The notes below the pieces were generated by a model, which saw only the letters and a list, made by a program, of their open reading frames with translations, had not been told where the DNA came from and ran no database searches. From a virus (Duplodnaviria > Heunggongvirae > Uroviricota > Caudoviricetes): DNA of 64,000 bases. Where the stretch lies: IMG/VR virus record IMGVR_UViG_3300001282_000006; one strand, 5' to 3'. Below are positions 6,754-57,717 of the stretch, in pieces. Within the stretch, counting starts at the first letter, position 1, and each line of letters starts with the position of its first letter. Position numbers and translations under genes: made by a program.

Positions 6754-8502
6754 ATGCTTATTAGTGAATTAGGAATTAGAGGATTCAAAAGTTATGGTAA
6801 TAACGAACAAGTCTTAAAATTAAATACGGAAAAAGGAGAATTGATTCTTCTTGTTGGAAATAACGGAGCAGGTAAATCATCTTTGTTAGATTCCTTCGAT
6901 TACACACTTTATGGTAAAGTTAGAGGTCGTAAAAAGAAATGGGCCACTTTATCCACACTCCCAAACAGAATTAACGGTGAACTACTTAATAGAATTAAAT
7001 TTAATTCTTTAGGTACTGACGTTGAAATAAAACGAGGTATATCACCTGGTGTGTTAGAACTTACAGAAAACGGTGTTGTCAATGAAAGAGCCGGTAAAGG
7101 TAATGTTGATGAAAAGATTGAAAAGTATATCGGTATGGATATTGAAACTTTCAAATCATTTATCTCAATGTCTATTAATGATTTCAAAAACTTTATCTCT
7201 TTATCAAATGAAGAAAAACAACTTCTTTTAGATAAGTTGTTCAACTTAGAAGTTATCAATATCTTAAATGGTATCTTAAAAGATATCGCTAAGAATAATA
7301 AAGTCAGAGCCGCTTCTTTTGATGGTGAAATTAGAACTTTAGATGACTCAATTTCATCTATTCAAAAGTCTATTGATAAAGCTATTGAAAGGCAAAAAGA
7401 AGAAGCTAGACTAGCTTTAGAAAGAGAGAAAGAAGATATTCAAGCCGAGATTGATAGAATCACAGGTGAGATGAATTCTAGAAAAGATGATTATAAATCT
7501 TTGAAAGAAAAGATGGATAAAATCAAAGAAAAGGATTCAGAATTATCTGATGAGATGGACAAAGAAAAAAGACAACTTATCAATTGTCAAAATGATATTA
7601 AGAATGTTCAAAGAGAATTAGACTTATATGATTCTGGTAAATGTCCTACTTGTAAAACAGATTTTGATTCGGTTCACTTTGCTAATTTAAGAACGGCTTT
7701 AGAAGAAAAGAAATTAGGTTTTGAAAATATCAAATCTGAAATTGAAGCTAATGTTACTAAGATAAGAGAAAGACAAGTTAAGTTAAAAGGTTTATCTGAA
7801 ACAACTACAACAACTTTTAATGATTTAAGTTATCTATTGAAAAACTATAAATCAGAGATTGATAAATTAGTTCAAAAGAAAGCTTCTCAAACTGTTCCGG
7901 TTAATACTACTCCTTCTATTAATATTCAAGAGTTTCAAAATACAATTGAAGAACTTGAAGAAAAGAAAGTAGTTAGTTCTGATAACATCACAGTTTGTAA
8001 AGAGAAAGACCTTTATTATAAAGAGTTGAATCGTATCTTTGGTGAAGATGGTGTTAAGAAGTCTATAATCTCTGGCATTATTAAACCAATCAATCACTTT
8101 ATTGCTGAGAATATTAAAAAGATGAGTTTGCCATTTGAAGTAAGATTAGATGAAACTTTTACAGCTGAGATTAAACAATTAGGTTCTCAAATTGAACACG
8201 ATTCTTTATCAACTGGTGAAACTAAAAAAGTTAATATTAGTATCTTAATTGCTTACTTGAAGTTAATTAGAACTAAGCGTCATATCAATATACTCTTCTT
8301 GGATGAGGTCTTCTCTTCTATTGATATCGAAGGTATAGATTCTATTTTGGCTCTCTTAAAATCGTTCGCAAACGATTATAACATCAATATCTTTGTTGTC
8401 CATCATGCTATTTTGAACCAAGAGATGTTTGATAGAATACTGAAGATTAATAAAGAAGTGTTTTCTTCGATAGAAGAGGTTGATCTGAGTTATGGAAGTT
8501 GA
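6754..8502 (+). CDS. sbcC: SbcC / Rad50-like recombination ATPase (T4 gp46-like).
   Basis: Walker A motif LLVGNNGAGKSS. Long central coiled coil with a CPTCKTDF zinc hook. C-terminal LFLDEVFSSID. Confidence 0.8.
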   Translation: MLISELGIRGFKSYGNNEQVLKLNTEKGELILLVGNNGAGKSSLLDSFDYTLYGKVRGRKKKWATLSTLPNRINGELLNRIKFNSLGTDVEIKRGISPGVLELTENGVVNERAGKGNVDEKIEKYIGMDIETFKSFISMSINDFKNFISLSNEEKQLLLDKLFNLEVINILNGILKDIAKNNKVRAASFDGEIRTLDDSISSIQKSIDKAIERQKEEARLALEREKEDIQAEIDRITGEMNSRKDDYKSLKEKMDKIKEKDSELSDEMDKEKRQLINCQNDIKNVQRELDLYDSGKCPTCKTDFDSVHFANLRTALEEKKLGFENIKSEIEANVTKIRERQVKLKGLSETTTTTFNDLSYLLKNYKSEIDKLVQKKASQTVPVNTTPSINIQEFQNTIEELEEKKVVSSDNITVCKEKDLYYKELNRIFGEDGVKKSIISGIIKPINHFIAENIKKMSLPFEVRLDETFTAEIKQLGSQIEHDSLSTGETKKVNISILIAYLKLIRTKRHINILFLDEVFSSIDIEGIDSILALLKSFANDYNINIFVVHHAILNQEMFDRILKINKEVFSSIEEVDLSYGS

Positions 8503-10921: not shown

Positions 10922-11123
10922 AAGATTTATCAGTAAAAATAGTTTATTATCAGCCGCTTCTAATGGCTTAGATTACTTAATAGGTTATGTAACAAAACCA
11001 GATGCTCTTATTATAGAGTCGGATGGTATATCTCACCAAGTTTGTGATATTGTTGGCTTAACAAAAGATAAACAAGAGATGAAACAAAAATTAAAAGAAA
11101 TAGGATTCTATGAATTTGAATAA
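10908..11123 (+). CDS. Hypothetical protein.
   Basis: 71-aa ORF. Confidence 0.45.
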   Translation: MSFNKRFISKNSLLSAASNGLDYLIGYVTKPDALIIESDGISHQVCDIVGLTKDKQEMKQKLKEIGFYEFE

Positions 11124-11817
11124 AAACTATTACTCAATTCTTGGAGTTGATAATAACTCTGATGAAAAGGTAATAAAAAAAACTTATTATAAATTATCAT
11201 TTACGCATCACCCTGATAAAGGCGGTAATCCTATTATCTTTGGTGAAATGACTGAGGCATATGATGTTCTTTGTAGTGAACAAAGAAAAGATTATGATGT
11301 TAAAAGTAAATTTGGTAATAATTATAATGAGTATTTTGAGCTATTTGATATTAATTTAGAATTTGATTATAATAAAGAAAAATCAAATTATGAAAAATTC
11401 AAAAAGAATGAAGTTTTAGATATCTATATGAATATAGATGAAACATTTAATGGTACGTTAGAATATGAAAGATGGGTTAAGTGTAAAACTTGTGATGGTA
11501 CAGGTAAAGACCTTTCAGCTAAAATTGTTATTAAAGACAATGATGGTAATATTTTAAGAACATTTGATGCTGATGATGGATGCGATTTCTGTGAAGGATC
11601 TGGTAAAGACTACAAAGGAGATGCTTGTAACTTTTGTAATGGTAAAGGTAAAGTAGGTTTAACACCTTGTAAAAAGTGTAATGGTGAAAAACGAATTTTA
11701 GGAAAACAAAAACTATCAGGTATTAAATTAACCGGTGATGAAACTAAAATTGAATCAATGGGTAATTGCTCTAAAGATGTTGCTGGAATGGTTGGTTATC
11801 TTTTATTAAAAAAATAA
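11110..11817 (+). CDS. dnaJ: DnaJ-like chaperone (J domain plus Cys-rich zinc finger).
   Basis: YYSILGVDNNSDEKVIKKTYYKLSFTHHPDKGG with an HPD tripeptide, then four CxxCxGxG repeats. Confidence 0.8.
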   Translation: MNLNKNYYSILGVDNNSDEKVIKKTYYKLSFTHHPDKGGNPIIFGEMTEAYDVLCSEQRKDYDVKSKFGNNYNEYFELFDINLEFDYNKEKSNYEKFKKNEVLDIYMNIDETFNGTLEYERWVKCKTCDGTGKDLSAKIVIKDNDGNILRTFDADDGCDFCEGSGKDYKGDACNFCNGKGKVGLTPCKKCNGEKRILGKQKLSGIKLTGDETKIESMGNCSKDVAGMVGYLLLKK

Positions 11818-19567: not shown

Positions 19568-20302
19568 ATGAATAAGAAAAAAGTATTGATTTTTACTGGA
19601 GCAGGAGTTTCAGCTGAAAGTGGCGTTGCTACTTTTAGAACTGGTGATGATGGGCTTTGGTATAATCATAAAGTAGAAGATGTTGCCACACCTAGTGGGT
19701 GGCGTAGAGATAGAGAAAAAGTTCTTAATTTCTACAATATGCGTCGTGCTCAAATGAAAGATGTTGAGCCAAATTTGGCGCATAAAATAATTGCTGAATT
19801 AGAAAATGATTATGATGTTACTGTTGTAACTCAAAATGTTGATGATTTACACGAAAGAGCAGGCTCAACTAATATTATTCATCTACATGGTGAGTTAACA
19901 AAAGCTAGAGGCTGTATGTATGATCATAAAACATCACCATTAGACACAGTTGTTGATGTGGGATATAATCCAATTAATATTGGAGATAAATGTCCAACAA
20001 CTGGCTCTCAATTAAGACCTCATATTGTTTGGTTTGGTGAAGATTTAGATCCTGATTTTGTTGATATGGCTACTAAAGCGGCTAAAGAATGTGATGTATG
20101 TATTGTTGTTGGAACTTCAATGAAAGTTTCACCTGCTAATACAATTCCATTTTTGACTAGAGAAACTACTAAGATTTACTATGTAGATTTATCAGACCTT
20201 GATTTCTATGTACCAGAATACAGAAATGACTTATTTACTCATTACCAAGAATTGGCATCAACTGGTATGGAAAAAGTTAAAAACGATTTAAAAAATATTT
20301 AA
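19568..20302 (+). CDS. cobB: Sir2-family NAD-dependent protein deacylase.
   Basis: GAGVSAESGVATFR, TQNVDDLHERAG and a CxxC Zn module (CMYD...CPTTG). HIVWFGE motif. Confidence 0.85.
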   Translation: MNKKKVLIFTGAGVSAESGVATFRTGDDGLWYNHKVEDVATPSGWRRDREKVLNFYNMRRAQMKDVEPNLAHKIIAELENDYDVTVVTQNVDDLHERAGSTNIIHLHGELTKARGCMYDHKTSPLDTVVDVGYNPINIGDKCPTTGSQLRPHIVWFGEDLDPDFVDMATKAAKECDVCIVVGTSMKVSPANTIPFLTRETTKIYYVDLSDLDFYVPEYRNDLFTHYQELASTGMEKVKNDLKNI

Positions 20303-28213: not shown

Positions 28214-28279
28214 AAGATTACTTTTATATAATTTTGAAATAAAGTTGTTTTTTCTAAGAATGTTTTATATATTTGTAGT

Positions 28280-28287
28280 TATAAATA
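28280..28287 (+). promoter_or_regulatory. TATAAATA box 12 nt upstream of the ATG at 28299.
   Basis: Exact TATAAATA. Confidence 0.35.
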
Positions 28288-28298
28288 TATTTAATACA

Positions 28299-28907
28299 AT
28301 GATAAAAGTTGGACTTTCGGGTAATAGATATTCAGGTAAAAATGAAGTCTGTAATATTTTCAGAAAACTCACCATACCTGTTTTTGAAGCAGATACTGTT
28401 TTGAAATTTATTATAAATCATGACGCTTCTGTTAATAGCCAAATAATGGCAAAGTTAAAACCCTTACACGGTAAATCTGTTTATGTAGATCCACAATTTG
28501 TAAAAACTAAAACAGAATTTGATATAGTTGTAGATTGTGCTCAGCATGAACTAATGAGAGCTTATGAAGCTTTCTCTGAAAAACACAAATCTTCTATTTA
28601 CACAATATTTCATTCTTCAATTTTATTTGAAAGAAACTGGCATAAACTAATGAACCACAATATTGCTATTTTTTGTCCAAAAATTACACGAATGGAAAGA
28701 TGTAAAGAATTGACAAATATGAAAGTTTCTGATGTTGCTATGTCAATGAGAAATGAAATAGACGACTTAGATAAAAATAAAATGGCTAACTTTGTAGTTC
28801 ATAATTATAATGGTAGAAAAGTTTTAGACCAAGTTCATCAAATCGACCAGTTTGTTATTGACTCTTATTTAAGATTAGAACAAACTATCGTATCAAAACA
28901 CTATTAA
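28299..28907 (+). CDS. P-loop kinase-like protein (dephospho-CoA-kinase-like fold with a degenerate Walker A).
   Basis: MIKVGLSGNRYSGKNEV..FEAD resembles CoaE MxxIGLTGGIGSGKS...DAD. Start moved to the ATG at 28299. Confidence 0.35.
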   Translation: MIKVGLSGNRYSGKNEVCNIFRKLTIPVFEADTVLKFIINHDASVNSQIMAKLKPLHGKSVYVDPQFVKTKTEFDIVVDCAQHELMRAYEAFSEKHKSSIYTIFHSSILFERNWHKLMNHNIAIFCPKITRMERCKELTNMKVSDVAMSMRNEIDDLDKNKMANFVVHNYNGRKVLDQVHQIDQFVIDSYLRLEQTIVSKHY

Positions 28908-29371
28908 TGAAAACTATTAAAATAAAATTAATCGAACCAACAACTCAAAAATTGGCTTTTGTTAAGCTAATAAAAGAGTGTAGTGGACTTGGTCTAAAAG
29001 AAGCTAAAGATTTGTGTGATAATATACATAGTTATTCAGAAAGAGTTCATGAAATGCCTATTCGTGACTGGGAAACTTATGATTATAACACAGGAGTAAC
29101 TACACCAGCCACAACAGACTACCGTAGAAAATTTACTACTGAAATTAAAAATATTGAGGGTAAATTTGTTGTTAACGGTGGGGTTCAATGGGATAGAAAT
29201 GTAAAAATGTTACAACTTGGAATAGCTGATAAATCTGACTATACCGAATTTATGAAAGATTATATCTTAAATAAATTTGACAATTCAGAAGATTTACTTA
29301 CCTTTGTACTCAATAAGTTTTCTAAAGAAGATTTACAAGAAGCATTCAATAAAATTAATATAGAATTATAA
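28907..29371 (+). CDS. Protein whose N-terminal ~50 aa resemble the C-terminal domain of ribosomal protein bL12 (L7/L12), fused to an unknown domain.
   Basis: [25 protein letters not shown] compared with bL12 CTD [25 protein letters not shown]. Confidence 0.5.
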   Translation: [154 protein letters not shown]

Positions 29372-29767
29372 ATGGCTAACGCTTATATTCATTCAAAGTC
29401 CTCTGCTCGAAAATTTGGAGGTGAACCAGAAGATTATCTTCATATCCATATGAAAATGGATTGTTCTAAAGCATATGTATCTGATAATAGACACAGGGTA
29501 CTCACTCACACAAGTTTTTGGATTCATGAAGTAATGATACCTATTTTTGGTTACACTATGAAAAATTCGGCTGGTAAAGAATTCTCTGTTAAAGATGTTT
29601 GTGAGCAACACATCTTAGAAGACTTTGGAATGAGATTTATACCAACTCCTCAAGATTATCTTGAAAATATGGAGTTCATGGACTGGATGCAAAATGGCAT
29701 CAAAGGTCACCCATCATCTTTTGAAAAACTTTCACAAAAAGGAAATATTAAAGTAAATTTAGATTAA
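29372..29767 (+). CDS. Hypothetical protein.
   Basis: 131-aa ORF. Confidence 0.55.
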   Translation: MANAYIHSKSSARKFGGEPEDYLHIHMKMDCSKAYVSDNRHRVLTHTSFWIHEVMIPIFGYTMKNSAGKEFSVKDVCEQHILEDFGMRFIPTPQDYLENMEFMDWMQNGIKGHPSSFEKLSQKGNIKVNLD

Positions 29768-31049: not shown

Positions 31050-32978
31050 ATGAGTAACATTTTAAATTTTATGTCAAACTATTGGTGGATTGGAGCAATT
31101 GTACTTTGCTTAGTAATGTACAAGTTCATCCTTCGAGTATTTTTCGGACTAGTTATTGTTCCTGAGGACAAGATTGGTTTAGTAACAAAAAAGTTCGTTC
31201 TTTTTGGAGAACACAAAGAACTTACAGGTGACCGTATTATTGCGGTAAATGGTGAAGCAGGTTATCAAGCAGAAATGCTTTCTCCGGGTCTTCATTGGTG
31301 GATGTGGCCTTGGCAGTATAACATCGATATGCATGGATTCGTTGTTATCCCAGAAGGTCATATTGGGTTAGTATCCTCTAAAGACGGTACTGTTCCACAA
31401 ACAGGTCGTATCTTAGGACGTAGAGTAGAATGTGAGAACTTCCAAGATGCTGTTACATTCTTATCGAATGGTGGTCAGAAAGGTCGTCAGTCTGCTTTTA
31501 TTCCAAATGGTGTTTATAAAATCAATACTTACTTATTTGAAGTATCTATTGTTAAACAAGCTACTATTCAAGAGAATATGGTGGGTGTTGTAACTACATT
31601 AGATGGTGAGCCATTAGAGAATGGTCAGATTGCGGGTAAAAATGTTGAAGGACATAATAACTTCCAAGATTTTGATAAATTTCTTGAGTTAGGTGGTAAT
31701 CGTGGTTTACAACAACAAACTATCTTAGCTGGTACTTACAACTTAAACCCTTGGGCTGTTCAAGTAGAAGAAGTACAAATGACTGAGATTCCAATTGGAC
31801 ACGTTGGTGTTGTTATCTCTTTCGTTGGAGAAGATGGTGTTGACGTAACTGGTGTTAACTTCAAACACGGTAACTTAGTTGGTAAAGGACAAAAAGGTGT
31901 TTGGGCTGAGCCATTCGGACCTGGTAAATATCCTATCAATAAGTACACTAATAAGATTGAGTTAGTGCCTACAACAAACTTAGTTCTTAACTGGGCCAAC
32001 GCTCGTACTGAGTCTCACAACTTAGATAAAGGACTTAACACAATTACTGTTCGTTCTAAAGATGGTTTCCCATTCAACTTAGATGTATCACAGATTATCC
32101 ACATTCCAATGACAGAAGCACCTAAAGTGATTGCTCGATTTGGTAACATGAATAACTTGGTATCTCAAGTTTTAGAGCCAACAATTGGTAACTACTTCCG
32201 TAACTCGGCTCAAGATTCTGATGTGATTGCTTTCTTAACTACTCGTAAAGAACGTCAAGATTCTGCGAAACAACACATTTCTAAAGTATTAGATGAATAT
32301 AATGTTCACGCTGTTGATACTTTGATTGGTGATATCGTTCCACCACAAGAGTTGATGAAAACGTTAACTGACCGTAAGATTGCTCAAGAGCAAGAAGTAA
32401 CTTTTGAAACTCAAAAGAAAGCCGCTATCTCTCGTCAAACTTATGAAAAAGAAACTGCGATTGCGGACATGCAAGGTGAAGTAGTAAAAGCCGACCAAGG
32501 TGTACAAATTGCTGAACGTCACGCTGATGCTTCTGTTAAGAAAGCTAAAGGTGATGCTGAATCTGTTAAAATTGCGGCTGAGGCAAGTGCTGAATCAACA
32601 AAGTTGAAAGCAGAAGCAGATGCTACAAGAACATCATTGATTGGTAATGCTGAGGCTGAGGCTATCCTTTCTAAGGGTAAATCTACAGCAGAAGCATACA
32701 AGCTAGCCGTTGAGGCGATGGGTAAAGAAAACTTTACAACATTTAAGGTTACCGAAGAGATTGGTAAAAACGGTGTGAAAATCATGCCAGACTTGTTAAT
32801 CAACGGAGGTGGACAAAGCGGGAACGGAGCAATAGACGGATTATTGGGAGTTCAAATCTTAAACATGATGGGTAACCAAATTGGTAAGAGTATGAACGAC
32901 ACGACAGTGAAATCAGAAGTACCTACTACTGATGTGCCTGTTGAAGATCTTTCTGTCCAAAGGAAAGGTAAGAAGTAA
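31050..32978 (+). CDS. Flotillin-like SPFH/band-7 domain protein (YqiK-like).
   Basis: N-terminal TM (WWIGAIVLCLVMY) and an SPFH core. C-terminal Ala/Glu/Lys-rich coiled coil AEASAESTKLKAEADATRTSLIGNAEAEAIL typical of bacterial flotillins. Confidence 0.75.
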   Translation: MSNILNFMSNYWWIGAIVLCLVMYKFILRVFFGLVIVPEDKIGLVTKKFVLFGEHKELTGDRIIAVNGEAGYQAEMLSPGLHWWMWPWQYNIDMHGFVVIPEGHIGLVSSKDGTVPQTGRILGRRVECENFQDAVTFLSNGGQKGRQSAFIPNGVYKINTYLFEVSIVKQATIQENMVGVVTTLDGEPLENGQIAGKNVEGHNNFQDFDKFLELGGNRGLQQQTILAGTYNLNPWAVQVEEVQMTEIPIGHVGVVISFVGEDGVDVTGVNFKHGNLVGKGQKGVWAEPFGPGKYPINKYTNKIELVPTTNLVLNWANARTESHNLDKGLNTITVRSKDGFPFNLDVSQIIHIPMTEAPKVIARFGNMNNLVSQVLEPTIGNYFRNSAQDSDVIAFLTTRKERQDSAKQHISKVLDEYNVHAVDTLIGDIVPPQELMKTLTDRKIAQEQEVTFETQKKAAISRQTYEKETAIADMQGEVVKADQGVQIAERHADASVKKAKGDAESVKIAAEASAESTKLKAEADATRTSLIGNAEAEAILSKGKSTAEAYKLAVEAMGKENFTTFKVTEEIGKNGVKIMPDLLINGGGQSGNGAIDGLLGVQILNMMGNQIGKSMNDTTVKSEVPTTDVPVEDLSVQRKGKK

Positions 32979-35153: not shown

Positions 35154-36251
35154 TTAACCTAAGGTCAAGAAGATTTTACGAGACATTCTATCCACTGAAA
35201 GAACTTTCACTTTGATATCTTGTCCTTGTGAGAACTTTTTACCAAGTTTCTCCATTTCTGAAGTGTGGATAAGACCCACTGTCTCATCATCAAGGTTTAC
35301 TAAAGTACCAAATGCTTTGGTGTCTTTAACAGTTCCTTCGATAACTTGACCGTTTTTAATGTTGTCCCAAAGAGTTTCACGAAGAATTTGAGTTAAGATA
35401 ATTTTATCTTTAATCACTTCTTTGATGTAAAAATCAATTTGAAATCCTGGTGTGATAGAAGTTAACTTCTCTGCCCATTCAGGATTAACGTTTGCTTTGT
35501 GGATCATTCCAGTTAAGCATTCGTTGAACTCCACGAACACACCAAATGGTGTAGTTCCTGTAACGTGACCGCTATAGATTTTGTTGTATTCCAATTCTTT
35601 AACAGCCTCAGGTATAAGAGTTTGAAGATACTTACGTCTTGAAACGATATAAGTTCCTTCGTTTTGAGCATAAGACTCAATCATAACGCTGAATGTTTTT
35701 CCAACGATTGCGTTAGGATCGTGTAATTTGTTGATTCCGGCTAAAGTGTTTGGCATAAATCCTGGAAGTGTAACACCACCGTGATTTAATTCAACATCAT
35801 AACCAGCTGGGTTAAGACTCTTAACTGTAACCATTACTGATTCGCCTTCAACAAGGGCTTTAAGCTTAGCGTGAGCTCTAGATTCATAAAGAGAAGCAAC
35901 ACTTCCTTTAATCATAAAAGCATCTTGATTTACTTCAGTGATTAATACGTCAATCATATCATTCAAGTTTAGGTTCTTGAAGTATTTAGACTCACCAACT
36001 TTATCATCAACTCTCACATCGTCTTTATAGCCAACCACACTAAACACAAATTGACCTGCTGACATGCCAACGTATTTAGCTGAAACAACTTGACCTTCTT
36101 CTGGGATAGCAATCTGGTCAAGATTGTAAAGTTTAAGCATTTCTTGGTATTCTTTCGTATTTTTGTTACGAGTACCTTTTGAGTTAAATTGAGTGTTTTC
36201 AAACACATCCATTAAATCCTCATTTCCGATTGTTTTGTTATTCATATTCAT
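35154..36251 (-). CDS. S1 RNA-binding-domain protein (ribosomal protein bS1-like, multiple S1 repeats).
   Basis: Several S1-like blocks, for example GQVVSAKYVGMSAGQFVFSV... and GQVIEGTVKDTKAFGTLVNLDDETVGLIHTSEM...GQDIKVKVLSVDRMSRKIFLTLG. Confidence 0.65.
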   Translation of the reverse strand: MNMNNKTIGNEDLMDVFENTQFNSKGTRNKNTKEYQEMLKLYNLDQIAIPEEGQVVSAKYVGMSAGQFVFSVVGYKDDVRVDDKVGESKYFKNLNLNDMIDVLITEVNQDAFMIKGSVASLYESRAHAKLKALVEGESVMVTVKSLNPAGYDVELNHGGVTLPGFMPNTLAGINKLHDPNAIVGKTFSVMIESYAQNEGTYIVSRRKYLQTLIPEAVKELEYNKIYSGHVTGTTPFGVFVEFNECLTGMIHKANVNPEWAEKLTSITPGFQIDFYIKEVIKDKIILTQILRETLWDNIKNGQVIEGTVKDTKAFGTLVNLDDETVGLIHTSEMEKLGKKFSQGQDIKVKVLSVDRMSRKIFLTLG

Positions 36252-45081: not shown

Positions 45082-46911
45082 ATGATTGAACAACTAAAAG
45101 AACAAATTATTAAGGCAAATGATGCCTATAGATTGGGACAACCAATTATATCTGATGCTAAGTATGACCAACTAGTTGAAGAATTATCTTTATTATCTCC
45201 AGATGATGAATTACTTACTAAAGTAGGTATTGAAATCGCTGATGAAACTCGTAAATCACGCCTTCCAATTGAAATGGCTTCGATGAATAAAATCAAGTCG
45301 ATGAATGATGTTGATGATTGGTCTCGTCTGAAAGGCATTTCAAAATCTGAATATGTTATTATCACACCAAAGTTTGATGGCTTATCATTATGTGTTAATG
45401 AGGCTACATCTGAAGCTTGGACTCGTGGTGATGGTGAATTCGGTCAAAAATCGAGCGAACATTACGCTTTAATTCAAAATCACTTAAACTTAGAAGAAGA
45501 TCCATTTAGTTTTACTTATGGTGAAGTAATGATACCTAAACAAGTATTCATTGAAAAATTCTCTGCTGATTTCGCCAACCCTCGTAACTTAGTTGCTGGT
45601 TTGTTAAACTCTAAAACTGTAAGTGATTCTCTAAAAGACTGTCAGTATATTAAATATGGTGCTGTTTGTAAAAGAAACTTCACAACTAAACAAGAAGTTA
45701 TTAACGAACTTAATAAAGGACAAGCATCAAAAGTACAATACTATATTTGTCAACTATCTGATTTATCAGAAGACCTGCTTATTGATTTATTTCATAAGTT
45801 CTCTACTGAATATGAAATCGATGGTTTGATTATCGAATTAAATGACTTAAAACTACAAGATAGATTAGGTCGTGAAACTTCTTCAAACAATCCAGTTTGG
45901 GCTCGTGCCTTCAAACATCCAAGTTTTGAGCAATCTGCTGAAACTGATGTTATTGGAATCTCTTGGAATATCTCTAAACAAGGTTTATTAAAACCAATCC
46001 TACACATTACTCCTGTTAAATTAGATGGTGTTACAGTGTCTAACGTGACTGGTAACAACGCCAGATTCGTAAAAGACTTAGGACTTGGTGTAGGTGCTAA
46101 AGTAGTCGTAAAACGCTCTGGAATGGTTATTCCAATCATTGCTGATGTTATCACTCCAGTTGAATTTGTTCAACCTACAATCGAAGGTGTTGAAGTAGAT
46201 TGGAATGAAGCAGGTATCGAGTTAATTACTTTGACCGAAACTGACGACCAAAAGTTAAAAAAGATTGTTGCTTTCTTTGAAATCTTAGAAGCAGACAATG
46301 TGTCAGAAGGAGTTATCACTCAATTATGGGATGCTGGTTATAAAACAATCAAAGATGTTCTTACTCTTACAACTTCTGACTTAGAGAAGATTGACCGTTT
46401 TGGTAAGAGAAAAGCTGACATCGTTTATAAGTCTATTCAAAAATCTGTTAGTAATGTTCAGTTGTCTAAACTACAACATGCTACAGGTATCTTCAAAGGA
46501 TTAGGTTCTAAGAAATTAGTTCTTTTAGAAGATTTCAAAACTAAACCAACTGTTGACCAAGTAATGTCAATTGAAGGATTTGCTGAAGTATCAGCTAAAT
46601 CATATATCGACTCATATGACATTTTCTTTGACTTTATTAAAGATCTACCTGTCACTATTACTGAAAAAGTTGAGGCTGTTAAAGTTGGCACAGACCTTGA
46701 GGGTAAATCATTTGTCTTTACCGGAGTTCGTAGACCAGATTTAGAATCTGATATTGAATCCCGTGGTGGAAAGATTGGTTCTGGTGTATCAAAAACAACA
46801 ACTCACCTTGTTATGAAAGCTATCGGTAGTGGCTCTTCTAAAGAAAAGAAGGCTATTGACTTGGGTGTTGAAGTGATTACCGTTGAACAATTAGAAAAAT
46901 TATTAAACTAA
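45082..46911 (+). CDS. ligA: NAD-dependent DNA ligase LigA.
   Basis: KFDGLS adenylation (KxDG) motif and a C-terminal BRCT domain (GKSFVFTGVRRPDLESDIESRGGKIGSGVSKTTTHLV). Confidence 0.9.
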   Translation: MIEQLKEQIIKANDAYRLGQPIISDAKYDQLVEELSLLSPDDELLTKVGIEIADETRKSRLPIEMASMNKIKSMNDVDDWSRLKGISKSEYVIITPKFDGLSLCVNEATSEAWTRGDGEFGQKSSEHYALIQNHLNLEEDPFSFTYGEVMIPKQVFIEKFSADFANPRNLVAGLLNSKTVSDSLKDCQYIKYGAVCKRNFTTKQEVINELNKGQASKVQYYICQLSDLSEDLLIDLFHKFSTEYEIDGLIIELNDLKLQDRLGRETSSNNPVWARAFKHPSFEQSAETDVIGISWNISKQGLLKPILHITPVKLDGVTVSNVTGNNARFVKDLGLGVGAKVVVKRSGMVIPIIADVITPVEFVQPTIEGVEVDWNEAGIELITLTETDDQKLKKIVAFFEILEADNVSEGVITQLWDAGYKTIKDVLTLTTSDLEKIDRFGKRKADIVYKSIQKSVSNVQLSKLQHATGIFKGLGSKKLVLLEDFKTKPTVDQVMSIEGFAEVSAKSYIDSYDIFFDFIKDLPVTITEKVEAVKVGTDLEGKSFVFTGVRRPDLESDIESRGGKIGSGVSKTTTHLVMKAIGSGSSKEKKAIDLGVEVITVEQLEKLLN

Positions 46912-47952: not shown

Positions 47953-48729
47953 ATGAATGATCTAAAAAATGAACAACAATCTACTGAAGAAATTATTGAA
48001 ACAGACACAACTTTTGCTGATATATATGATATAAATTATTCGGGTGAGCAATCACCATTAACGGCAAAAGAAGGCAATATTGAGGATGAATTAATGACTC
48101 CTCAACAAAAAAAGAAACGGCAAAATATGGAACCTAAAAAGGCAATTCTATTCAGTGAACAAGAAAAAGTATTTAGAGAAAGAACGGGTAAAGATTTCTC
48201 ATCATTGTACACAAAGTATTACCCAAAACTAGTATATTTTACAGCTAAAATTACTAATGACCCTCAAAAAGCAGAAGATATCTCAACAGATTCATTCATG
48301 GCGGCTTTTGAGAAGATTGAGAAGTATGAAAAAGAAAAATCTCAATTCTCTACCTGGCTATTTACAATAGCAAAAAATCTAGCATTACAAGACCTTAAAA
48401 ACGAAAAGAAAACAATGTCGTTAGATATTGAGTTCGATGATGAAGGAACAACAATGAAAGACTTCATTCAAGAAGACGAAGGTGACAATTTCATGCATGA
48501 GATTCATGCTAAGAAAGCTGACATTATGAAGAAGCACATTGAGAACTTGAAGAATCCTTATCGTGATGTAATCGAAATGCGTGAGTTAAAAAGAATGTCT
48601 TATAAAGATATCTCCGATAAACTTAACCTAAACCTATCAACAGTTAAATCACAAATTCGTAACGGAAGAGCTATCTTAGTTCGTGAGACTAAGAAAGAGT
48701 TTGACGCTATCGATGAAATGTTAATGTAA
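47953..48729 (+). CDS. Sigma-70-family RNA polymerase sigma factor (regions 2 and 4).
   Basis: Region-2-like FMAAFEKIEKYEKEKSQFSTWLFTIAKNLALQ. Region-4 HTH YRDVIEMRELKRMSYKDISDKLNLNLSTVKSQIRNGR. Confidence 0.75.
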   Translation: MNDLKNEQQSTEEIIETDTTFADIYDINYSGEQSPLTAKEGNIEDELMTPQQKKKRQNMEPKKAILFSEQEKVFRERTGKDFSSLYTKYYPKLVYFTAKITNDPQKAEDISTDSFMAAFEKIEKYEKEKSQFSTWLFTIAKNLALQDLKNEKKTMSLDIEFDDEGTTMKDFIQEDEGDNFMHEIHAKKADIMKKHIENLKNPYRDVIEMRELKRMSYKDISDKLNLNLSTVKSQIRNGRAILVRETKKEFDAIDEMLM

Positions 48730-50090: not shown

Positions 50091-50459
50091 ATGATAGCAT
50101 ATATAACAGAATTAAACGGTGAGAACTATGATGATTTCGTTAAAGAAGGTATAGTACTTGTTGATATTTGGGCACCTTGGTGTGGTCCTTGTAAAATGAT
50201 TTCTCCAATTATAGACCAAATTTCTTCAGACTACTTTGAAAAAATCACAGTTGGTAAATGTGATGCTGACGCAAATAGAGATAAAGTTATGGAACTTGGT
50301 GTTAGAAATATTCCAACAATCTTCTTTTATAAAGATGGTCAAATTGTTGAATCTACACACGGGGCGGTAACTAAGAAAAAATTAACTGAAATTATTGATG
50401 GTTTATTAGCACCTGCCGAATCAGTTGATTCTATTGACAACACTGACACTGACTTTTAA
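50091..50459 (+). CDS. trxA: Thioredoxin.
   Basis: WAPWCGPCKMISP active site. Confidence 0.9.
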   Translation: MIAYITELNGENYDDFVKEGIVLVDIWAPWCGPCKMISPIIDQISSDYFEKITVGKCDADANRDKVMELGVRNIPTIFFYKDGQIVESTHGAVTKKKLTEIIDGLLAPAESVDSIDNTDTDF

Positions 50460-50470
50460 AATAAAGTCAA

Positions 50471-51064
50471 ATGAAAAACATTGAATATTTTTTTGAATTA
50501 ATACAAAAATCTGATATATCTCTTTTGGGGTATAGATTCAAGCAGGAAAGACTCAAAGACGAGATTATTTCTAAACTACCTCACTTGGTGGTTCCTGAAA
50601 TAGACTCGTCTTTTTCTTTTAAATCTTTTTTAAGAGATTTGAAACTTCAATCAATTTTAGAAACTGGTAATACTGTAAACAATCCAGAGTATCTTGTTTT
50701 AGATTTAAATGAGATTATATTTAAGTCAGATGATTTAGGAGGTAGACAAAATCAAATAGGAAATATTATTAATAAAATCAGAGAAGATTTATACTCAAAT
50801 TATTCTGATGTTTACCCTCAAACACCACCTTATAAACTTTTAATGTTAACATCACTATATAGTAGTGTAAAGAATGTTGATGATGCTAGTATTACAAATT
50901 TCAAAGGTGGTAGTAAACCAATTTATGTAAGTGATGTGGCTATTGTGATGGAAGAGGAGTCAATGAAAGTAATAAAGAATAGATTTGATGATAACAACAT
51001 TGATATTTCTTACAACAAATTAAAAGATTATAACTATATTTGTAACTATGAAAATAACAACTAA
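50471..51064 (+). CDS. Hypothetical protein.
   Basis: 197-aa ORF. Confidence 0.55.
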   Translation: MKNIEYFFELIQKSDISLLGYRFKQERLKDEIISKLPHLVVPEIDSSFSFKSFLRDLKLQSILETGNTVNNPEYLVLDLNEIIFKSDDLGGRQNQIGNIINKIREDLYSNYSDVYPQTPPYKLLMLTSLYSSVKNVDDASITNFKGGSKPIYVSDVAIVMEEESMKVIKNRFDDNNIDISYNKLKDYNYICNYENNN

Positions 51065-51482
51065 TAGAAAAGCTTATTATGAATACTTTGTGTTGGAAGA
51101 CTTCGACGCAGGTGTAATGCTATTGGGAGCTGAAGTTAAATCAGTTAGAGAAGGCAATGTTTCTATAGTTGATTGTTTTGCTTATATCACTAATGGTGAA
51201 GTTTGGTTAAAGAATATGAAAGTAGCCAGATATAAACAAACACATGTGGCTGAAAAACATGATGAAAGTCGAGATAAGAAATTACTTCTTAATCGAAAAG
51301 AGATTAATAGAATTGAAAAGTTACTTCAAGATAAAGGAACAACTATGGTTCCACTTGAAATATTTACAGCACATAACCGTGTAAAGGTTAAGATTGGTGT
51401 TGTTAAAGGAAAAAAGTTGTACGATAAAAGAGAAACAATCAAAAAAAGAGATATGGATCGAGAGATCCGTCGAACGGTATAA
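51048..51482 (+). CDS. smpB: SsrA-binding protein SmpB.
   Basis: NRKAYYEYFVLEDFDAGVMLLGAEVKSVREG...KKLLLNRKEI...KVKIGVVKGKKLYDKRETIKKRDMDRE aligns along its whole length with bacterial SmpB. Confidence 0.85.
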   Translation: MKITTNRKAYYEYFVLEDFDAGVMLLGAEVKSVREGNVSIVDCFAYITNGEVWLKNMKVARYKQTHVAEKHDESRDKKLLLNRKEINRIEKLLQDKGTTMVPLEIFTAHNRVKVKIGVVKGKKLYDKRETIKKRDMDREIRRTV

Positions 51483-54018: not shown

Positions 54019-54423
54019 ATGACACTGAAAGAAAAAATCAACGCAGACTTTATGACAGCATTTAAGTCTAAGAACATGGTAGCAAAAAGCATACTATCTG
54101 TTGTTAAAGGAGAAATTCAAACTGTAGAAAAGAATATTGGTTCTGATAATCTTTCAGATGTTGAGGTAACTAAAATTCTTACAAAAACTGTAAAGTCTCT
54201 TAAAGAAACTATTACATTAAGCAATGACGAAAAATCTAAAGTAGAATTGTCAGTAATTGAAGTTTATCTTCCAACACAAATGTCTAAAGAAGAAGTTACA
54301 GCTAAAGTAACAGAACTTGTTAATTCTGGAATCACACAAATCGGTGCTATTATGAAAGAATTCGCAACTCTTCCAGCTGATAAGAAAATGGTTTCTGAAT
54401 CAATCAAAGAAGTTATTAAGTAG
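54019..54423 (+). CDS. GatB/YqeY-domain protein.
   Basis: MTLKEKINADFMTAFKSKNMVAKSILSVVKGEIQ fits the YqeY family pattern. Confidence 0.7.
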   Translation: MTLKEKINADFMTAFKSKNMVAKSILSVVKGEIQTVEKNIGSDNLSDVEVTKILTKTVKSLKETITLSNDEKSKVELSVIEVYLPTQMSKEEVTAKVTELVNSGITQIGAIMKEFATLPADKKMVSESIKEVIK

Positions 54424-55900: not shown

Positions 55901-55973
55901 GGAACCTAAGCTAATCAGGTGAAAGCACTGGACTGAAAATCCAGGGAGCCCGGATCGTTACCGGGAGGTTCCA
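55901..55973 (+). tRNA. tRNA with a GAA anticodon (Phe-like) and an atypical T-loop ATCGTTA.
   Basis: GGAACCT..CTGGA-CTGAAAA-TCCAG..CCCGG-ATCGTTA-CCGGG-AGGTTCC-A. Confidence 0.45.
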
Positions 55974-56050
55974 CGGAGTCCTGAGATAAACAGGAGACCC
56001 CCACTCCCATATGGCAGTCAGTCCGGTAATCTGATGAAGTGGGGTATTAT

Positions 56051-56124
56051 GGTGAATGTAGCTCAATCGGTAGAGCGCTGGTTTGTGGTACCAGAGGTAG
56101 CGGGATCGTAACCCGTCATTTACC
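56051..56124 (+). tRNA. tRNA-His(GUG) with the extra G-1:C73 pair.
   Basis: G-GTGAATG-TA-GCTCAATCGGTAGAGC..CTGGT-TTGTGGT-ACCAG..GCGGG-ATCGTAA-CCCGT-CATTTAC-C. Confidence 0.65.
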
Positions 56125-56129
56125 CAAAA

Positions 56130-56201
56130 GGAGACTTAGCTAAGTAGGTTTAGCGTCCGGTTGAAGCCCGGAAGAGATCGGTTCGATTCCGGTAGTCTCC
56201 A
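56130..56201 (+). tRNA. tRNA-Phe(GAA).
   Basis: GGAGACT-TA-GCTAAGTAGGTTTAGC-G-TCCGG-TTGAAGC-CCGGA..ATCGG-TTCGATT-CCGGT-AGTCTCC-A. Confidence 0.65.
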
Positions 56202-56207
56202 CAACAT

Positions 56208-56278
56208 ACGTCATACAGACAAGGTGTCGGTCAGGTCTCCAAAACCTCGACGGTGGGGTTCGATTCCTCAATGGCGTG
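56208..56278 (+). tRNA. tRNA-Trp(CCA).
   Basis: ACGTCAT..AGGT-CTCCAAA-ACCT..TGGGG-TTCGATT-CCTCA-ATGGCGT-G. The acceptor stem pairs along its full length. Confidence 0.55.
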
Positions 56279-56337
56279 CTAATATTATAAAAGAAAAATT
56301 AAAAGAAATGAAAACAAAATTGAAATATAAACGCTAG

Positions 56338-56363
56338 GCAACGATTCATACGGATCGTTGCCC
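56338..56363 (+). other. Perfect 9-bp hairpin inside the tRNA cluster (processing or terminator element).
   Basis: GGCAACGAT-tcatacgg-ATCGTTGCC. Confidence 0.4.
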
Positions 56364-56376
56364 TCAATAAGACAAT

Positions 56377-56449
56377 GATTCCGTAGCTCAATCGGTGGAG
56401 CTTCCGACTTTTAATCGGAAGGTTGTGGGTTCGAACCCCACCGGGATCA
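56377..56449 (+). tRNA. tRNA-Lys(UUU).
   Basis: GATTCCG-TA-GCTCAATCGGTGGAGC-T-TCCGA-CTTTTAA-TCGGA-AGGTT-GTGGG-TTCGAAC-CCCAC-CGGGATC-A. Confidence 0.75.
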
Positions 56450-56463
56450 CTAAAAACACAAAT

Positions 56464-56546
56464 GATCCTGTCGCTTAGCGGCTATAGCAACTGGCTTTTA
56501 ACCAGTAGATTAATTTCAACCGTGGGTTCGAGTCCCACCAGGATCA
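56464..56546 (+). tRNA. tRNA-Lys-like paralogue (UUU anticodon as read) with a 15-nt variable region.
   Basis: GATCCTG..ACTGG-CTTTTAA-CCAGT-AGATTAATTTCAACC-GTGGG-TTCGAGT-CCCAC-CAGGATC-A. Confidence 0.45.
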
Positions 56547-56555
56547 CTAAGTAAT

Positions 56556-56638
56556 GCGTCTGTCGCTTAGTGGCTATAGCAACTGGCTTTTAACCAGTAG
56601 ATTAATTTCAACCGTGGGTTCGAGTCCCACCAGACGCA
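56556..56638 (+). tRNA. Tandem near-identical copy of the previous tRNA with a different acceptor stem (GCGTCTG/CAGACGC).
   Basis: The body is identical to 56464..56546 except for one D-loop base. All seven acceptor-stem base pairs are replaced. Confidence 0.45.
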
Positions 56639-56645
56639 CAAAATT

Positions 56646-56729
56646 GATTCCGTCGCATAGCGGCGATTGCGCCAGACTCTTAATCTGATGATGAAAAGTC
56701 CACCGTGGGTTCGAGTCCCACCGGAATCA
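56646..56729 (+). tRNA. tRNA-Lys-like paralogue (CUU anticodon as read) with an expanded variable region.
   Basis: GATTCCG..CAGA-CTCTTAA-TCTG..GATGATGAAAAGTCCACC-GTGGG-TTCGAGT-CCCAC-CGGAATC-A. Confidence 0.4.
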
Positions 56730-56738
56730 CAAAAAATG

Positions 56739-56879
56739 GAGAGAGTAGCTCAGTTGGTAGAGCACGTTATTATACTCTGATAAGTATTCTCTGATTACGG
56801 TTAACGTAATTAGTAGTGATGTTAAGAGTTACTTCGGCTGTTAACCGCGTGGTCGTAGGTTCGAGTCCTGCCTCTCTCC
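56739..56879 (+). tRNA. tRNA gene interrupted by a ~65-nt insertion (putative small intron). A possible anticodon arm CGG-CTGTTAA-CCG gives GUU/Asn.
   Basis: Canonical GAGAGAG-TA-GCTCAGTTGGTAGAGC 5' part and GTAGG-TTCGAGT-CCTGC-CTCTCTC-C 3' part, separated by extra sequence containing AGAGTTACTTCG. Confidence 0.4.
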
Positions 56880-56945
56880 CTAGTTATGAGACTGTTTAGA
56901 ATTTTATCGACTTGGCACTTTTCAAGTAACGTAATAAATTCATTT

Positions 56946-57073
56946 GGGGATGTAGCTCAGTGGTAGAGAAAACTATCTCTTTTGAAATTTTACCTCGTAA
57001 GAGTGTTGATTGAGAGAGTTACTTCGTATATTTTGAAATTATAAGGTCGTTGGTTCGAATCCAACCATCCCCA
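56946..57073 (+). tRNA. tRNA gene interrupted by a ~55-nt insertion related to the one in 56739..56879.
   Basis: GGGGATG-TA-GCTCAGTGGTAGAG...GTTGG-TTCGAAT-CCAAC-CATCCCC-A. The insert contains GAGAGTTACTTCG and a duplicated TTTTGAAATT. Confidence 0.4.
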
Positions 57074-57116
57074 CAAAAAAAGAAGAATAAAAAATTAATA
57101 TATAACAAATAAGATT

Positions 57117-57194
57117 ATGAAAACAATTATTAACACATCGTCAAAATCGTCAAGTCGCTCGTCAAAAATGAGTGAGGTTCGATCGTGTTCATAA
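57117..57194 (+). CDS. Possible 25-aa Ser-rich micro-ORF inside the tRNA cluster.
   Basis: ATG preceded by TTAATATATAAC and followed by a terminator. MKTIINTSSKSSSRSSKMSEVRSCS. Confidence 0.15.
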   Translation: MKTIINTSSKSSSRSSKMSEVRSCS

Positions 57195-57214
57195 TATTCA
57201 AATAAGATATTAAA

Positions 57215-57251
57215 GAAACCCTTCGAACATCAGTTTGAAGGGTTTTTTGTT
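57215..57251 (+). terminator. Rho-independent terminator between tRNA sub-clusters.
   Basis: aaacccttc-gaacatcagttt-gaagggttttttg. Confidence 0.7.
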
Positions 57252-57258
57252 TTTATAT

Positions 57259-57333
57259 GGTTCTATAGTTTAACTGGATAAAACACTCGGCTACGAACCG
57301 AGAGACGTGAAGGTTCGAATCCTTCTAGAATCA
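57259..57333 (+). tRNA. tRNA-Arg(ACG).
   Basis: GGTTCTA-TA-GTTTAACTGGATAAAAC-A-CTCGG-CTACGAA-CCGAG..GAAGG-TTCGAAT-CCTTC-TAGAATC-A. Confidence 0.7.
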
Positions 57334-57338
57334 CAAAT

Positions 57339-57422
57339 GGAGAGGTAATTTAGCTGGCGCTAAAGCTAGTCTTGAAAACTAGTCGTACCTACGGGTATGG
57401 GGATCGATACCTCACCTCTCCG
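57339..57422 (+). tRNA. tRNA-Ser(UGA), class II.
   Basis: GGAGAGG..CTAGT-CTTGAAA-ACTAG, long variable arm CGTACCTACGG, TGGGG-ATCGATA-CCTCA-CCTCTCC-G. Confidence 0.65.
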
Positions 57423-57427
57423 CAACC

Positions 57428-57513
57428 GGAAGGAGTCCGAATGGACGAGGACACCGCCTTGAAAGCGGCTGGGTCGAAAGGCTTTGGGGGTTCGATTCCC
57501 TCTTCTTCCGCCA
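57428..57513 (+). tRNA. Second class-II tRNA with a UGA anticodon (Ser) and an encoded 3' CCA.
   Basis: GGAAGGA..CCGC-CTTGAAA-GCGG, long variable arm, GGGGG-TTCGATT-CCCTC-TTCTTCC-G-CCA. Confidence 0.55.
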
Positions 57514-57515
57514 AT

Positions 57516-57601
57516 GGAGAGTAAACTAGTCAGGGTACTAGCACCGCCTGCTAAGCGAGTGGCACAATAAAATGTGTGAGTTTCGAATACTCTGCTCTCC
57601 G
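57516..57601 (+). tRNA. Class-II tRNA, probably Ser(GCU). The anticodon stem is weak.
   Basis: GGAGAGT..CTGCTAA loop, variable hairpin CACAATAAAATGTG, TTCGAAT T-loop, GCTCTCC-G. Confidence 0.45.
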
Positions 57602-57613
57602 CAAAAGATAACT

Positions 57614-57700
57614 GGAGAGTTGTCCGAGTGGTTTATGGAGCACGCTTGGAAAGCGTGTGTACTTGAAAGAGTACCGAGGGTTCGAATCCCTCACTCTCCG
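57614..57700 (+). tRNA. tRNA-Ser(GGA), class II.
   Basis: GGAGAGT-T-GTCCGAGTGGTTTATGGAGCA-CACGC-TTGGAAA-GCGTG-TGTACTTGAAAGAGTACC-GAGGG-TTCGAAT-CCCTC-ACTCTCC-G. Confidence 0.7.
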
Positions 57701-57717
57701 CATAAAAATTAAGAATT

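Follow-up and report, generated by a model that had tools for sequence, protein, structure and literature searches.

A phage protein family pairing a predicted bL12 C-terminal-domain fold with a lineage-specific four-helix module

In the 64,000-nucleotide stretch of phage DNA analyzed here (the window, from IMG/VR record IMGVR_UViG_3300001282_000006), one small gene encodes a protein that pairs the predicted fold of a complete C-terminal domain (CTD) of the ribosomal stalk protein bL12 with a four-helix module of its own. Within the bL12-like part, the residues kept most strictly by the family correspond to those through which bL12 contacts translational GTPases. We are highly confident in this structural description. 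As to function, we tentatively favor, at somewhat short of even chances, an off-stalk factor-binding protein that would couple host translational GTPases to a second partner. Below, we discuss the architecture of the protein, its family and gene neighborhood, the conserved surfaces together with the explanations that compete for them, and finally its relation to known systems.

Protein architecture and similarity to bL12

An initial annotation had quoted a bL12-like stretch in this gene, and both the stretch and the gene stand: residues 15-39 read as quoted, and the open reading frame is real (Table 1), without a second copy in the window. The profile search proposed at the time, with Pfam PF00542 (Ribosomal_L12), passes the gathering cutoff (29.7 bits vs 25.9, E=8.1e-7) and aligns residues 6-40 with profile positions 3-37 of 67. 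A family profile searched against all PDB sequences retrieves bL12 chains alone at E<0.01 (1dd3 at E=7.8e-6), and hhalign matches the family N-domain with four bL12 CTDs at 97.2% probability (E=3e-11). All three sequence-level matches are confined to residues ~7-40, i.e., CTD positions 5-38 (E. coli I57-A90), where residues 15-38 correspond to E. coli bL12 K65-E88. This similarity to bL12 is well above chance. TIGR00855, the NCBIfam equivalog for full-length bL12, reaches 27.7 bits vs a cutoff of 84.4, over profile positions 60-95 of 125.

Table 1. Features of the bL12-like gene and its direct neighbors in the window
Feature	Position	Strand	Basis and remarks
CoaE-like gene (dephospho-CoA kinase family)	28299..28907	+	Pfam CoaE E=4.7e-15; overlaps bL12-like gene by 1 nt
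bL12-like gene	28907..29371	+	154 aa, ATG start; stop codon inside coordinates; two modules
bL12 CTD-like domain, residues 1-90	28907..29176	+	AlphaFold secondary structure, Foldseek, BFVD
Helix-loop-helix, residues 15-38 (conservation hot spot 1)	28949..29020	+	Pfam and hhalign alignment
Beta-hairpin insertion, residues 55-72, beta2-alphaC loop	29069..29122	+	AlphaFold model, column occupancy
Four-helix C-terminal module, residues 93-154	29183..29368	+	AlphaFold model
Conservation hot spot 2, residues 97-112, helix-turn-helix	29195..29242	+	111-member alignment
DUF6915 gene	29372..29767	+	Pfam DUF6915 E=1.5e-34; starts directly after bL12-like stop codon

Could the gene nonetheless be a chance open reading frame with a spurious motif in AT-rich DNA? 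The shortness of the sequence-level match (~35 residues) is all that speaks for it. Full-length conservation in >125 clusters refutes the idea, and fixed synteny, the Pfam gathering threshold being passed, and a confident fold prediction further counter it, leaving a practically negligible probability.

The bL12-like part extends well beyond the stretch recognized by sequence. In an AlphaFold2 model built from a 26-sequence alignment (mean pLDDT 84.8), the N-module consists of beta1 (residues 3-10), two helices (15-26 and 30-42), beta2 (47-51), alphaC (72-82), and beta3 (86-90), which is the topology of a complete bL12 CTD, broken by a hairpin that follows beta2 and precedes alphaC. In a Foldseek search of the PDB, bL12 CTDs come out as the best matches (3j9y_7, 2zjq_5, 1rqu_A, 1dd3_A, and 1ctf; probability 0.94-0.99), with a target-normalized TM of 0.6-0.66 for isolated CTD chains; next comes ClpS, which shares this fold. 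Viral bL12-CTD proteins likewise rank first in a BFVD search. Given this topology and ranking, we are dealing with an entire bL12-like domain of ~90 aa instead of a 35-aa piece.

The structure check suggested with the initial annotation thus came out as a bL12 CTD fold, and the reach of the earlier claims shifts accordingly: the match to a bL12 helix-loop was correctly spotted, but its extent (residues ~10-45) was underestimated. Similarly, of the remaining ~100 aa then called unrelated, this description suits residues 93-154 only, since residues 41-90 complete the CTD fold in the model as beta2, the inserted hairpin, alphaC, and beta3. The hairpin insert itself comprises 18 residues with strands at 56-59 and 64-67; its columns are occupied at 0.06-0.46 across the family, so it is present in a minority and specific to a sublineage.

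In the C-module, the predicted helices span residues 93-104, 109-121, 127-136, and 140-149, and the module modeled alone reaches a pLDDT of 89.1. Between the modules lies N90-G91-G92 alone (residue 90 closes beta3 and residue 93 opens the next helix), and neither the AlphaFold model nor the alignment shows a flexible Ala/Gly/Pro-rich hinge there. A search of 16 family members with Ribosomal_L12_N gave no match at E<=10, and hhalign for the bL12 N-terminal domain gave 1.3% probability; the C-module is not a bL12 N-terminal domain. We found no detectable relatives of it outside its own family. Its hallmark is the motif R-x2-K-x-L-x-L-G-x-G-x3-D-Y (residues 97-112).

Several origins of the C-module were considered and rejected. 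An internal duplication, which would derive 'LGIGDKxDY' from 'GLGLKEAKD', finds an HMM cross-match of -0.4 bits (i-Evalue 47) and an hhalign probability of 2.1% between the N- and C-modules. Weak matches to peptidyl-tRNA hydrolase (Pth) occur in 5 of 16 members (best E=7.5e-4, at ~17 bits vs a cutoff of 27). The resemblance, a short 'R-I-G-I-G...V-x-x-F-V-L', falls in a strand-loop-helix region of Pth, whereas the C-module is all-helical, and the relation is rejected on that ground. Matches to DnaA_N and Mre11_C are sub-threshold.

Family, phage lineage, and gene neighborhood

The family is abundant in metagenomes. A word-indexed protein search returned 69 clusters of homologs, all of them metagenomic, with full-length alignments and identities down to 34%, and an exhaustive HMMER search with the C-module alone yielded 125 representative clusters at 50% identity. 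Nearly all of the latter matches measure 128-170 aa in total and have the module as their C-terminal part, and nearly all that are full-length carry the KLxFVKxIK...GLGLKExKD N-domain (exceptions are P0085 and P0165). As the C-module is found almost exclusively joined to a bL12-like N-domain, the two form an obligate pair. Shorter C-module matches resemble truncated gene calls. The exact window protein is recorded in 242 blocks of a metagenome assembly collection, and 11 IMG/VR contigs hold full-length relatives, eight of these contigs being 86-476 kb long.

Among deposited phage genomes, on the other hand, tblastn located the family only in LR756502.1 (642,428 bp) and LR745206.1 (634,780 bp). 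In the work of Al-Shayeb et al., genomes >634 kb fall into the 'Mahaphage' clade, for which Bacteroidetes are the predicted hosts (PMC7162821). From these family matches, together with 78% nucleotide identity over part of the region, we infer that the window probably belongs to the Mahaphage lineage; its gene content is typical of a huge phage. Membership of the family in crAss-like phages, raised by BFVD matches, was rejected, as tblastn queries with the window protein and with two of the family's distant members again led to the two huge-phage records only. With regard to the source phylum, all hits of a scan restricted to exact 8-mer patterns were bL12 genes from Clostridia that have 'CSGLGLKE' in common. 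A similar stretch, starting with KL, occurs in Bacteroidota bL12.

The gene is embedded in a well-conserved block. Its 1-nt overlap with the CoaE-like gene, already reported in the initial annotation, is borne out by the letters (TAA at 28905-28907, ATG at 28907-28909), and a CoaE-like gene lies directly or almost directly upstream in 13 of 13 related loci. The Walker A motif of the CoaE-like product is degenerate. Downstream, DUF6915 follows in 11 of the 13 loci (71-100% identity) and then a 241-aa protein, beyond which Band_7/SPFH is usually found where the contig extends. An S1-domain gene on the opposite strand occurs in 11 of 13 loci, as does an upstream M16 peptidase, usually accompanied by a Toprim gene. 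At none of the loci examined was an rplJ-rplL (uL10-bL12) operon setting seen. Based on this conserved synteny across 13 loci, we consider the bL12-like gene a core gene that is vertically inherited. Scans for sigma-70-type promoters and terminators around the operon gave no more hits than shuffled controls.

Even so, it is among the fastest-evolving genes of the block: in divergent loci, the bL12-like proteins are 27-44% identical, while DUF6915, Band_7, M16, and S1 are 59-83% identical, and the bL12-like contact face is still retained. In locus L020, for example, identity to the window protein is 38% for the bL12-like and 42% for the CoaE-like product, compared with 82% (DUF6915), 77% (Band_7), 80% (M16), and 69% (S1). 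The corresponding values in locus L024 are 28% and 35%, vs 71%, 69%, 66%, and 61%.

The window also encodes other translation-related functions, namely a full-length SmpB (E=4e-53), a YqeY-like protein, an S1-domain protein, and 9-11 tRNA genes. A translational GTPase, uL10, or uL11 was not found within it. A tblastn search for EF-Tu-like G domains, using E. coli EF-Tu as the query, matched 54 phage records, LR756502.1 and LR745206.1 not among them. A phage-encoded GTPase partner was rejected on this basis, and since the closest complete phage genomes lack an EF-Tu-like G domain in this search, the GTPase partner would be a host factor.

Conserved surfaces and possible modes of action

Conservation was computed over 111 family members filtered to <70% identity, and it is concentrated in two patches, one on the bL12-like face and one on the first two helices of the C-module. 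The first patch comprises, with conservation and the E. coli bL12 equivalent from hhalign in parentheses, K15 (.75, K65), L16 (.93, V66), F18 (.63, V68), V19 (.85, I69), K20 (.95, K70), K23 (.92, R73), G27 (.66, G77), L28 (.68, L78), G29 (.86, G79), L30 (.99, L80), K31 (.69, K81), E32 (.56, E82), K34 (.98, K84), D35 (.64, D85), and D38 (.89, E88). In bL12, V66-V68, K70, L80, and E82 contact the G' subdomain of EF-G (PMC5887453). The equivalents of V66, V68, K70, and L80 are kept in 63-99% of the 111 members, and that of E82 in 56%. The same region of bL12 is said, after Helgstrand et al. 2007, to bind IF2, EF-Tu, and RF3. When the gene was first annotated, the matching region was described as the translational-GTPase site of bL12; the family data agree, for the conserved residues are those contacting translational GTPases.

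The opposite holds for the side of bL12 that docks onto uL11, formed by K95 on beta2 and a cleft of L58, L94, L106, and L110 (PMC3505967). Positions equivalent to L94, K95, L106, and L110 (on beta2 and alphaC) are variable in the family and adjoin the hairpin insertion, a mapping that is taken from the predicted structure and is moderately secure. On this mapping, selection has preserved the GTPase-contact face and not the uL11 (ribosome-side) face.

The second patch falls on the C-module motif, where R97 (1.00), K100 (.84), L102 (.96), L104 (.79), G105 (.95), G107 (.86), D111 (.76), Y112 (.87), and F115 (.73) stand out among the 111 non-redundant members. At position 107, the window protein itself has Ala. 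Judging from the alignment, this patch indicates a second functional surface. Conservation in alpha4-alpha5 could, however, partly reflect fold stability instead of a binding surface.

What might such a protein do? It cannot be a conventional stalk protein, since it has no N-terminal domain and no hinge, fails TIGR00855, has no rplJ neighbor, and carries a C-module unrelated to the bL12 N-terminal domain. We propose that a phage captured the C-terminal domain of a cellular rplL, which would have lost the N-terminal dimerization/uL10-binding domain and the flexible hinge and become fused to the lineage-specific four-helix module. During infection, the protein would bind host translational GTPases (EF-G, EF-Tu, IF2, or RF3) via the alpha4-loop-alpha5 face, and it would do so off the ribosomal stalk. 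The C-module (R97, K100, G105, G107, and Y112) would then link the captured factor to a second partner, either by associating with itself or through another phage or host component, such that factors may be titrated or rerouted as part of the phage's takeover of translation.

This off-stalk reading follows from the preserved GTPase-contact face, the unpreserved uL11 face, and the missing features of a stalk protein. We are less confident about the off-ribosome step than about the structural description. A decoy or adaptor function, as suggested initially, fits the predicted pattern of a constrained GTPase face and a free uL11 face without hinge or N-terminal domain. Isolated bL12 CTDs bind factors only weakly, and a simple stoichiometric decoy would therefore need high expression.

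Alternatively, the protein could act on the ribosome as a stalk substitute, with its C-module sitting on uL10 or at a site near the GTPase-associated center and its CTD serving as an additional or modified arm for recruiting factors, to the benefit of phage translation. Incorporation of a viral bL12 into the ribosome is the model put forward by Mizuno et al., whose mass spectrometry of 70S ribosomes prepared at high salt detected the bL12-domain protein of a Salmonella phage (PMC6375957). This is a different protein, but its co-purification with 70S counts against the off-stalk model in that it favors an on-ribosome role for some phage bL12-domain proteins. The conserved factor-binding face is also in line with a substitute, as is the C-module being a small helical bundle, just like the bL12 N-terminal domain. 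Weighing this evidence, we judge a ribosome-incorporated role to be unlikely. A partner outside translation (RNA polymerase or, in the manner of ClpS, a protease or an adaptor) for a repurposed bL12/ClpS-type fold, with the motif as an ancestral residue, is to be considered as well. Free mitochondrial bL12, for one, binds POLRMT. ClpS has the same fold and is the next match after bL12 in the fold searches, and the adjoining genes (CoaE-like, DUF6915, Band_7, and peptidases) are not translation genes. Yet the conserved residues are the bL12 signature, including its surface lysines, and not the ClpS pocket; no ClpS Pfam match exists at E<=1; and near-invariance in 111 members of <70% identity argues for active selection on the face. 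Such repurposing thus strikes us as very unlikely.

A further idea is that a free bL12 CTD serves as bait for defense effectors that dock on the stalk, e.g., the type III CRISPR CARF-RelE nuclease Cami1, and lures them away from ribosomes. Cami1 binds the ribosome via L12 (PMC12179292), the PDB entry of Cami1 on 70S (8phj) is among our fold matches through its bL12 chain, and rapid change everywhere but on one invariant face would suit a protein engaged in an arms race. Critically speaking, this case is purely circumstantial: PADLOC and anti-defense searches gave no matches for the gene or its neighbors, and the gene resides in a conserved core block rather than in a variable accessory island. 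We regard an anti-defense mimic as highly improbable. A more encompassing proposal would see a soluble, hinge-less 'stalk-head' adaptor, in which the bL12 face is used off the ribosome and the four-helix module delivers the captured partner to a phage-specific target. That partner would be either a host translational GTPase or a stalk-dependent defense nuclease such as Cami1. We regard this proposal as speculative and rather improbable; if true, it would represent a new mechanism of translation takeover or anti-defense by mimicry of the ribosomal stalk.

Coming back to the off-stalk coupling of host GTPases to a second partner, the family provides a clean test case, the protein being small (154 aa), abundant, and, in the largest known phages, encoded by a core gene in conserved synteny. 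For phage bL12-domain genes in general, the sole experiment so far is a single mass-spectrometry peptide in ribosome fractions. The two conserved surfaces of the family are separable, and one corresponds residue by residue to the GTPase face of bL12, which makes point-mutant pull-downs and GTPase-stimulation assays straightforward; free L7/L12 is reported to stimulate the GTPase activity of EF-G independently of ribosomes. Action off the ribosome would make the protein an example of stalk mimicry; otherwise, it would add a defined case to the catalog of viral ribosomal proteins.

Comparison with known systems

With cellular bL12 (rplL), the phage protein has in common the CTD fold and the alpha4-loop-alpha5 signature K-[VL]-x-[VF]-[IV]-K-x-[VI]-[RK] ... 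G-L-G-L-K-E-A-K-D. It differs in placing the CTD at the N-terminus, in lacking the N-terminal dimerization/uL10-binding domain, the hinge, and the rplJ-rplL operon, and in having a second CTD half that is unrecognizable by sequence. The alpha/beta fold is also that of ClpS, which serves ClpAP as N-degron adaptor and ranks second in both the PDB and the viral fold searches; like ClpS, the phage protein would be a small soluble adaptor. Membership in the ClpS family was nonetheless rejected, as the fold alone is common (8-11% identity) and the conserved residues are of the bL12 type.

The closest comparison is with other phage proteins. Mizuno et al. (2019) described Ribosomal_L12 domains in phages, some fused to other sequence and in varied gene contexts, which keep the residues that contact uL11, EF-G, and EF-Tu (PMC6375957); examples come from Ralstonia phage RSB3 (98 aa), roseophage DSS3P2 (107 aa), and Salmonella phage FSL SP-076 (418 aa). 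Al-Shayeb et al. (2020) listed rpL7/L12 as one of the genes for translation that huge phages carry (PMC7162821), and BFVD holds many viral 'bL12 C-terminal domain-containing' proteins, crAss-like phages included. Like the Mizuno proteins, the present family is viral, has only the CTD of bL12 and no N-terminal domain, keeps the elongation-factor contacts, and is joined to non-ribosomal sequence, among genes that are not ribosomal either. Unlike them, it has an obligate two-module architecture of ~130-170 aa with its own conserved four-helix module and motif, bears a lineage-specific hairpin insert in the bL12-like domain, occurs among deposited phages only in two genomes of 635-642 kb, and, as mapped on the model, does not retain the uL11-contact residues.

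In short, phage bL12-domain proteins were already known (2019, 2020), and the present family is a well-delimited addition rather than a new category. Apparently new are the obligate four-helix module and the motif it carries, a uL11 side selectively freed from constraint, and the standing of a bL12-like gene as a rapidly evolving core gene in the largest phages.

Conserved neighbours and the CoaE-like gene

The genes surrounding the bL12-like gene (see the table) are conserved to very different degrees across the related loci. Directly downstream, the DUF6915 protein shows very strong conservation: its identity is 71-100%, as against 28-86% for the bL12-like protein in the same loci. The Band_7/SPFH gene is likewise among the most conserved of the block (69-98%). 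The S1-domain gene on the opposite strand is syntenic in 11 of the 13 loci, with identities of 59-94% (59-72% for complete genes), and its product is a candidate for another translation or RNA factor of the phage lineage.

The CoaE-like gene, on the other hand, matches the bL12-like gene, to which it is coupled, in its rate of evolution. Because its Walker A motif is degenerate (GNRYSGK followed by N/D/T, versus GK-S/T) and the lysine itself is substituted in close relatives (SGTD in loci L015 and L016, SGYN in L025), we consider, from the sequence, that the CoaE-like protein may not be an active kinase.

Coordinates of the features discussed, in nucleotides of the window
Feature	Coordinates	Strand	Remarks
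SbcC/Rad50-like ATPase	6754-8502	+	Huge-phage accessory gene
DnaJ	11110-11817	+	Huge-phage accessory gene
SIR2	19568-20302	+	Huge-phage accessory gene
Divergent intergenic region	28214-28298		AT-rich, 85 bp, upstream of CoaE-like gene
CoaE-like gene	28299-28907	+	Coupled upstream of bL12-like gene
DUF6915 gene	29372-29767	+	Directly downstream of bL12-like gene
Band_7/SPFH-domain protein	31050-32978	+	642 aa, N-terminal hydrophobic segment
S1-domain protein	35154-36251	-	365 aa, S1 RNA-binding domain at C-terminus
NAD-dependent DNA ligase	45082-46911	+	Huge-phage accessory gene
Sigma-70-like factor	47953-48729	+	Regions 2 and 4; huge-phage accessory gene
Thioredoxin	50091-50459	+	Huge-phage accessory gene
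SmpB	51048-51482	+	Full-length
YqeY-like protein	54019-54423	+	Huge-phage accessory gene
tRNA array	55901-57701	+	ARAGORN, Rfam

Expression signals and host

The divergent intergenic region contains TATATTTG (28268-28275), which fits TAnnTTTG, the Bacteroidota -7 promoter consensus. No obvious Shine-Dalgarno sequence precedes any start codon of the operon. Both features agree with a Bacteroidota host.

Ribosome rescue and tRNAs

Among the phage's genes is one for SmpB (Pfam E=4e-53), which works together with tmRNA, as its protein partner, to rescue ribosomes. Searches of the window with ARAGORN and with Rfam both gave no tmRNA. ARAGORN calls nine tRNAs in the array (Phe x2, His, Lys x4, Arg, and Ser), including three tRNA-Lys of 84-85 nt. 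Rfam alone reports two additional tRNA-like matches of unusual length, one spanning 141 nt (56739-56879) and the other 128 nt (56946-57073). ARAGORN makes no call at either position; the two may be tRNAs carrying insertions or introns.

Other architectures of the two modules

Matching the bL12-like stretch of the protein only (residues about 12-45, or 15-97), 23 further viral contigs in IMG/VR (L026-L048), some of them 385-508 kb long, would be other viral bL12-CTD architectures. Conversely, the C-terminal four-helix module is found, rarely, behind an N-terminus without the bL12-like motif, namely in P0085 (134 aa) and P0165 (196 aa), two proteins that could reveal its role on its own.
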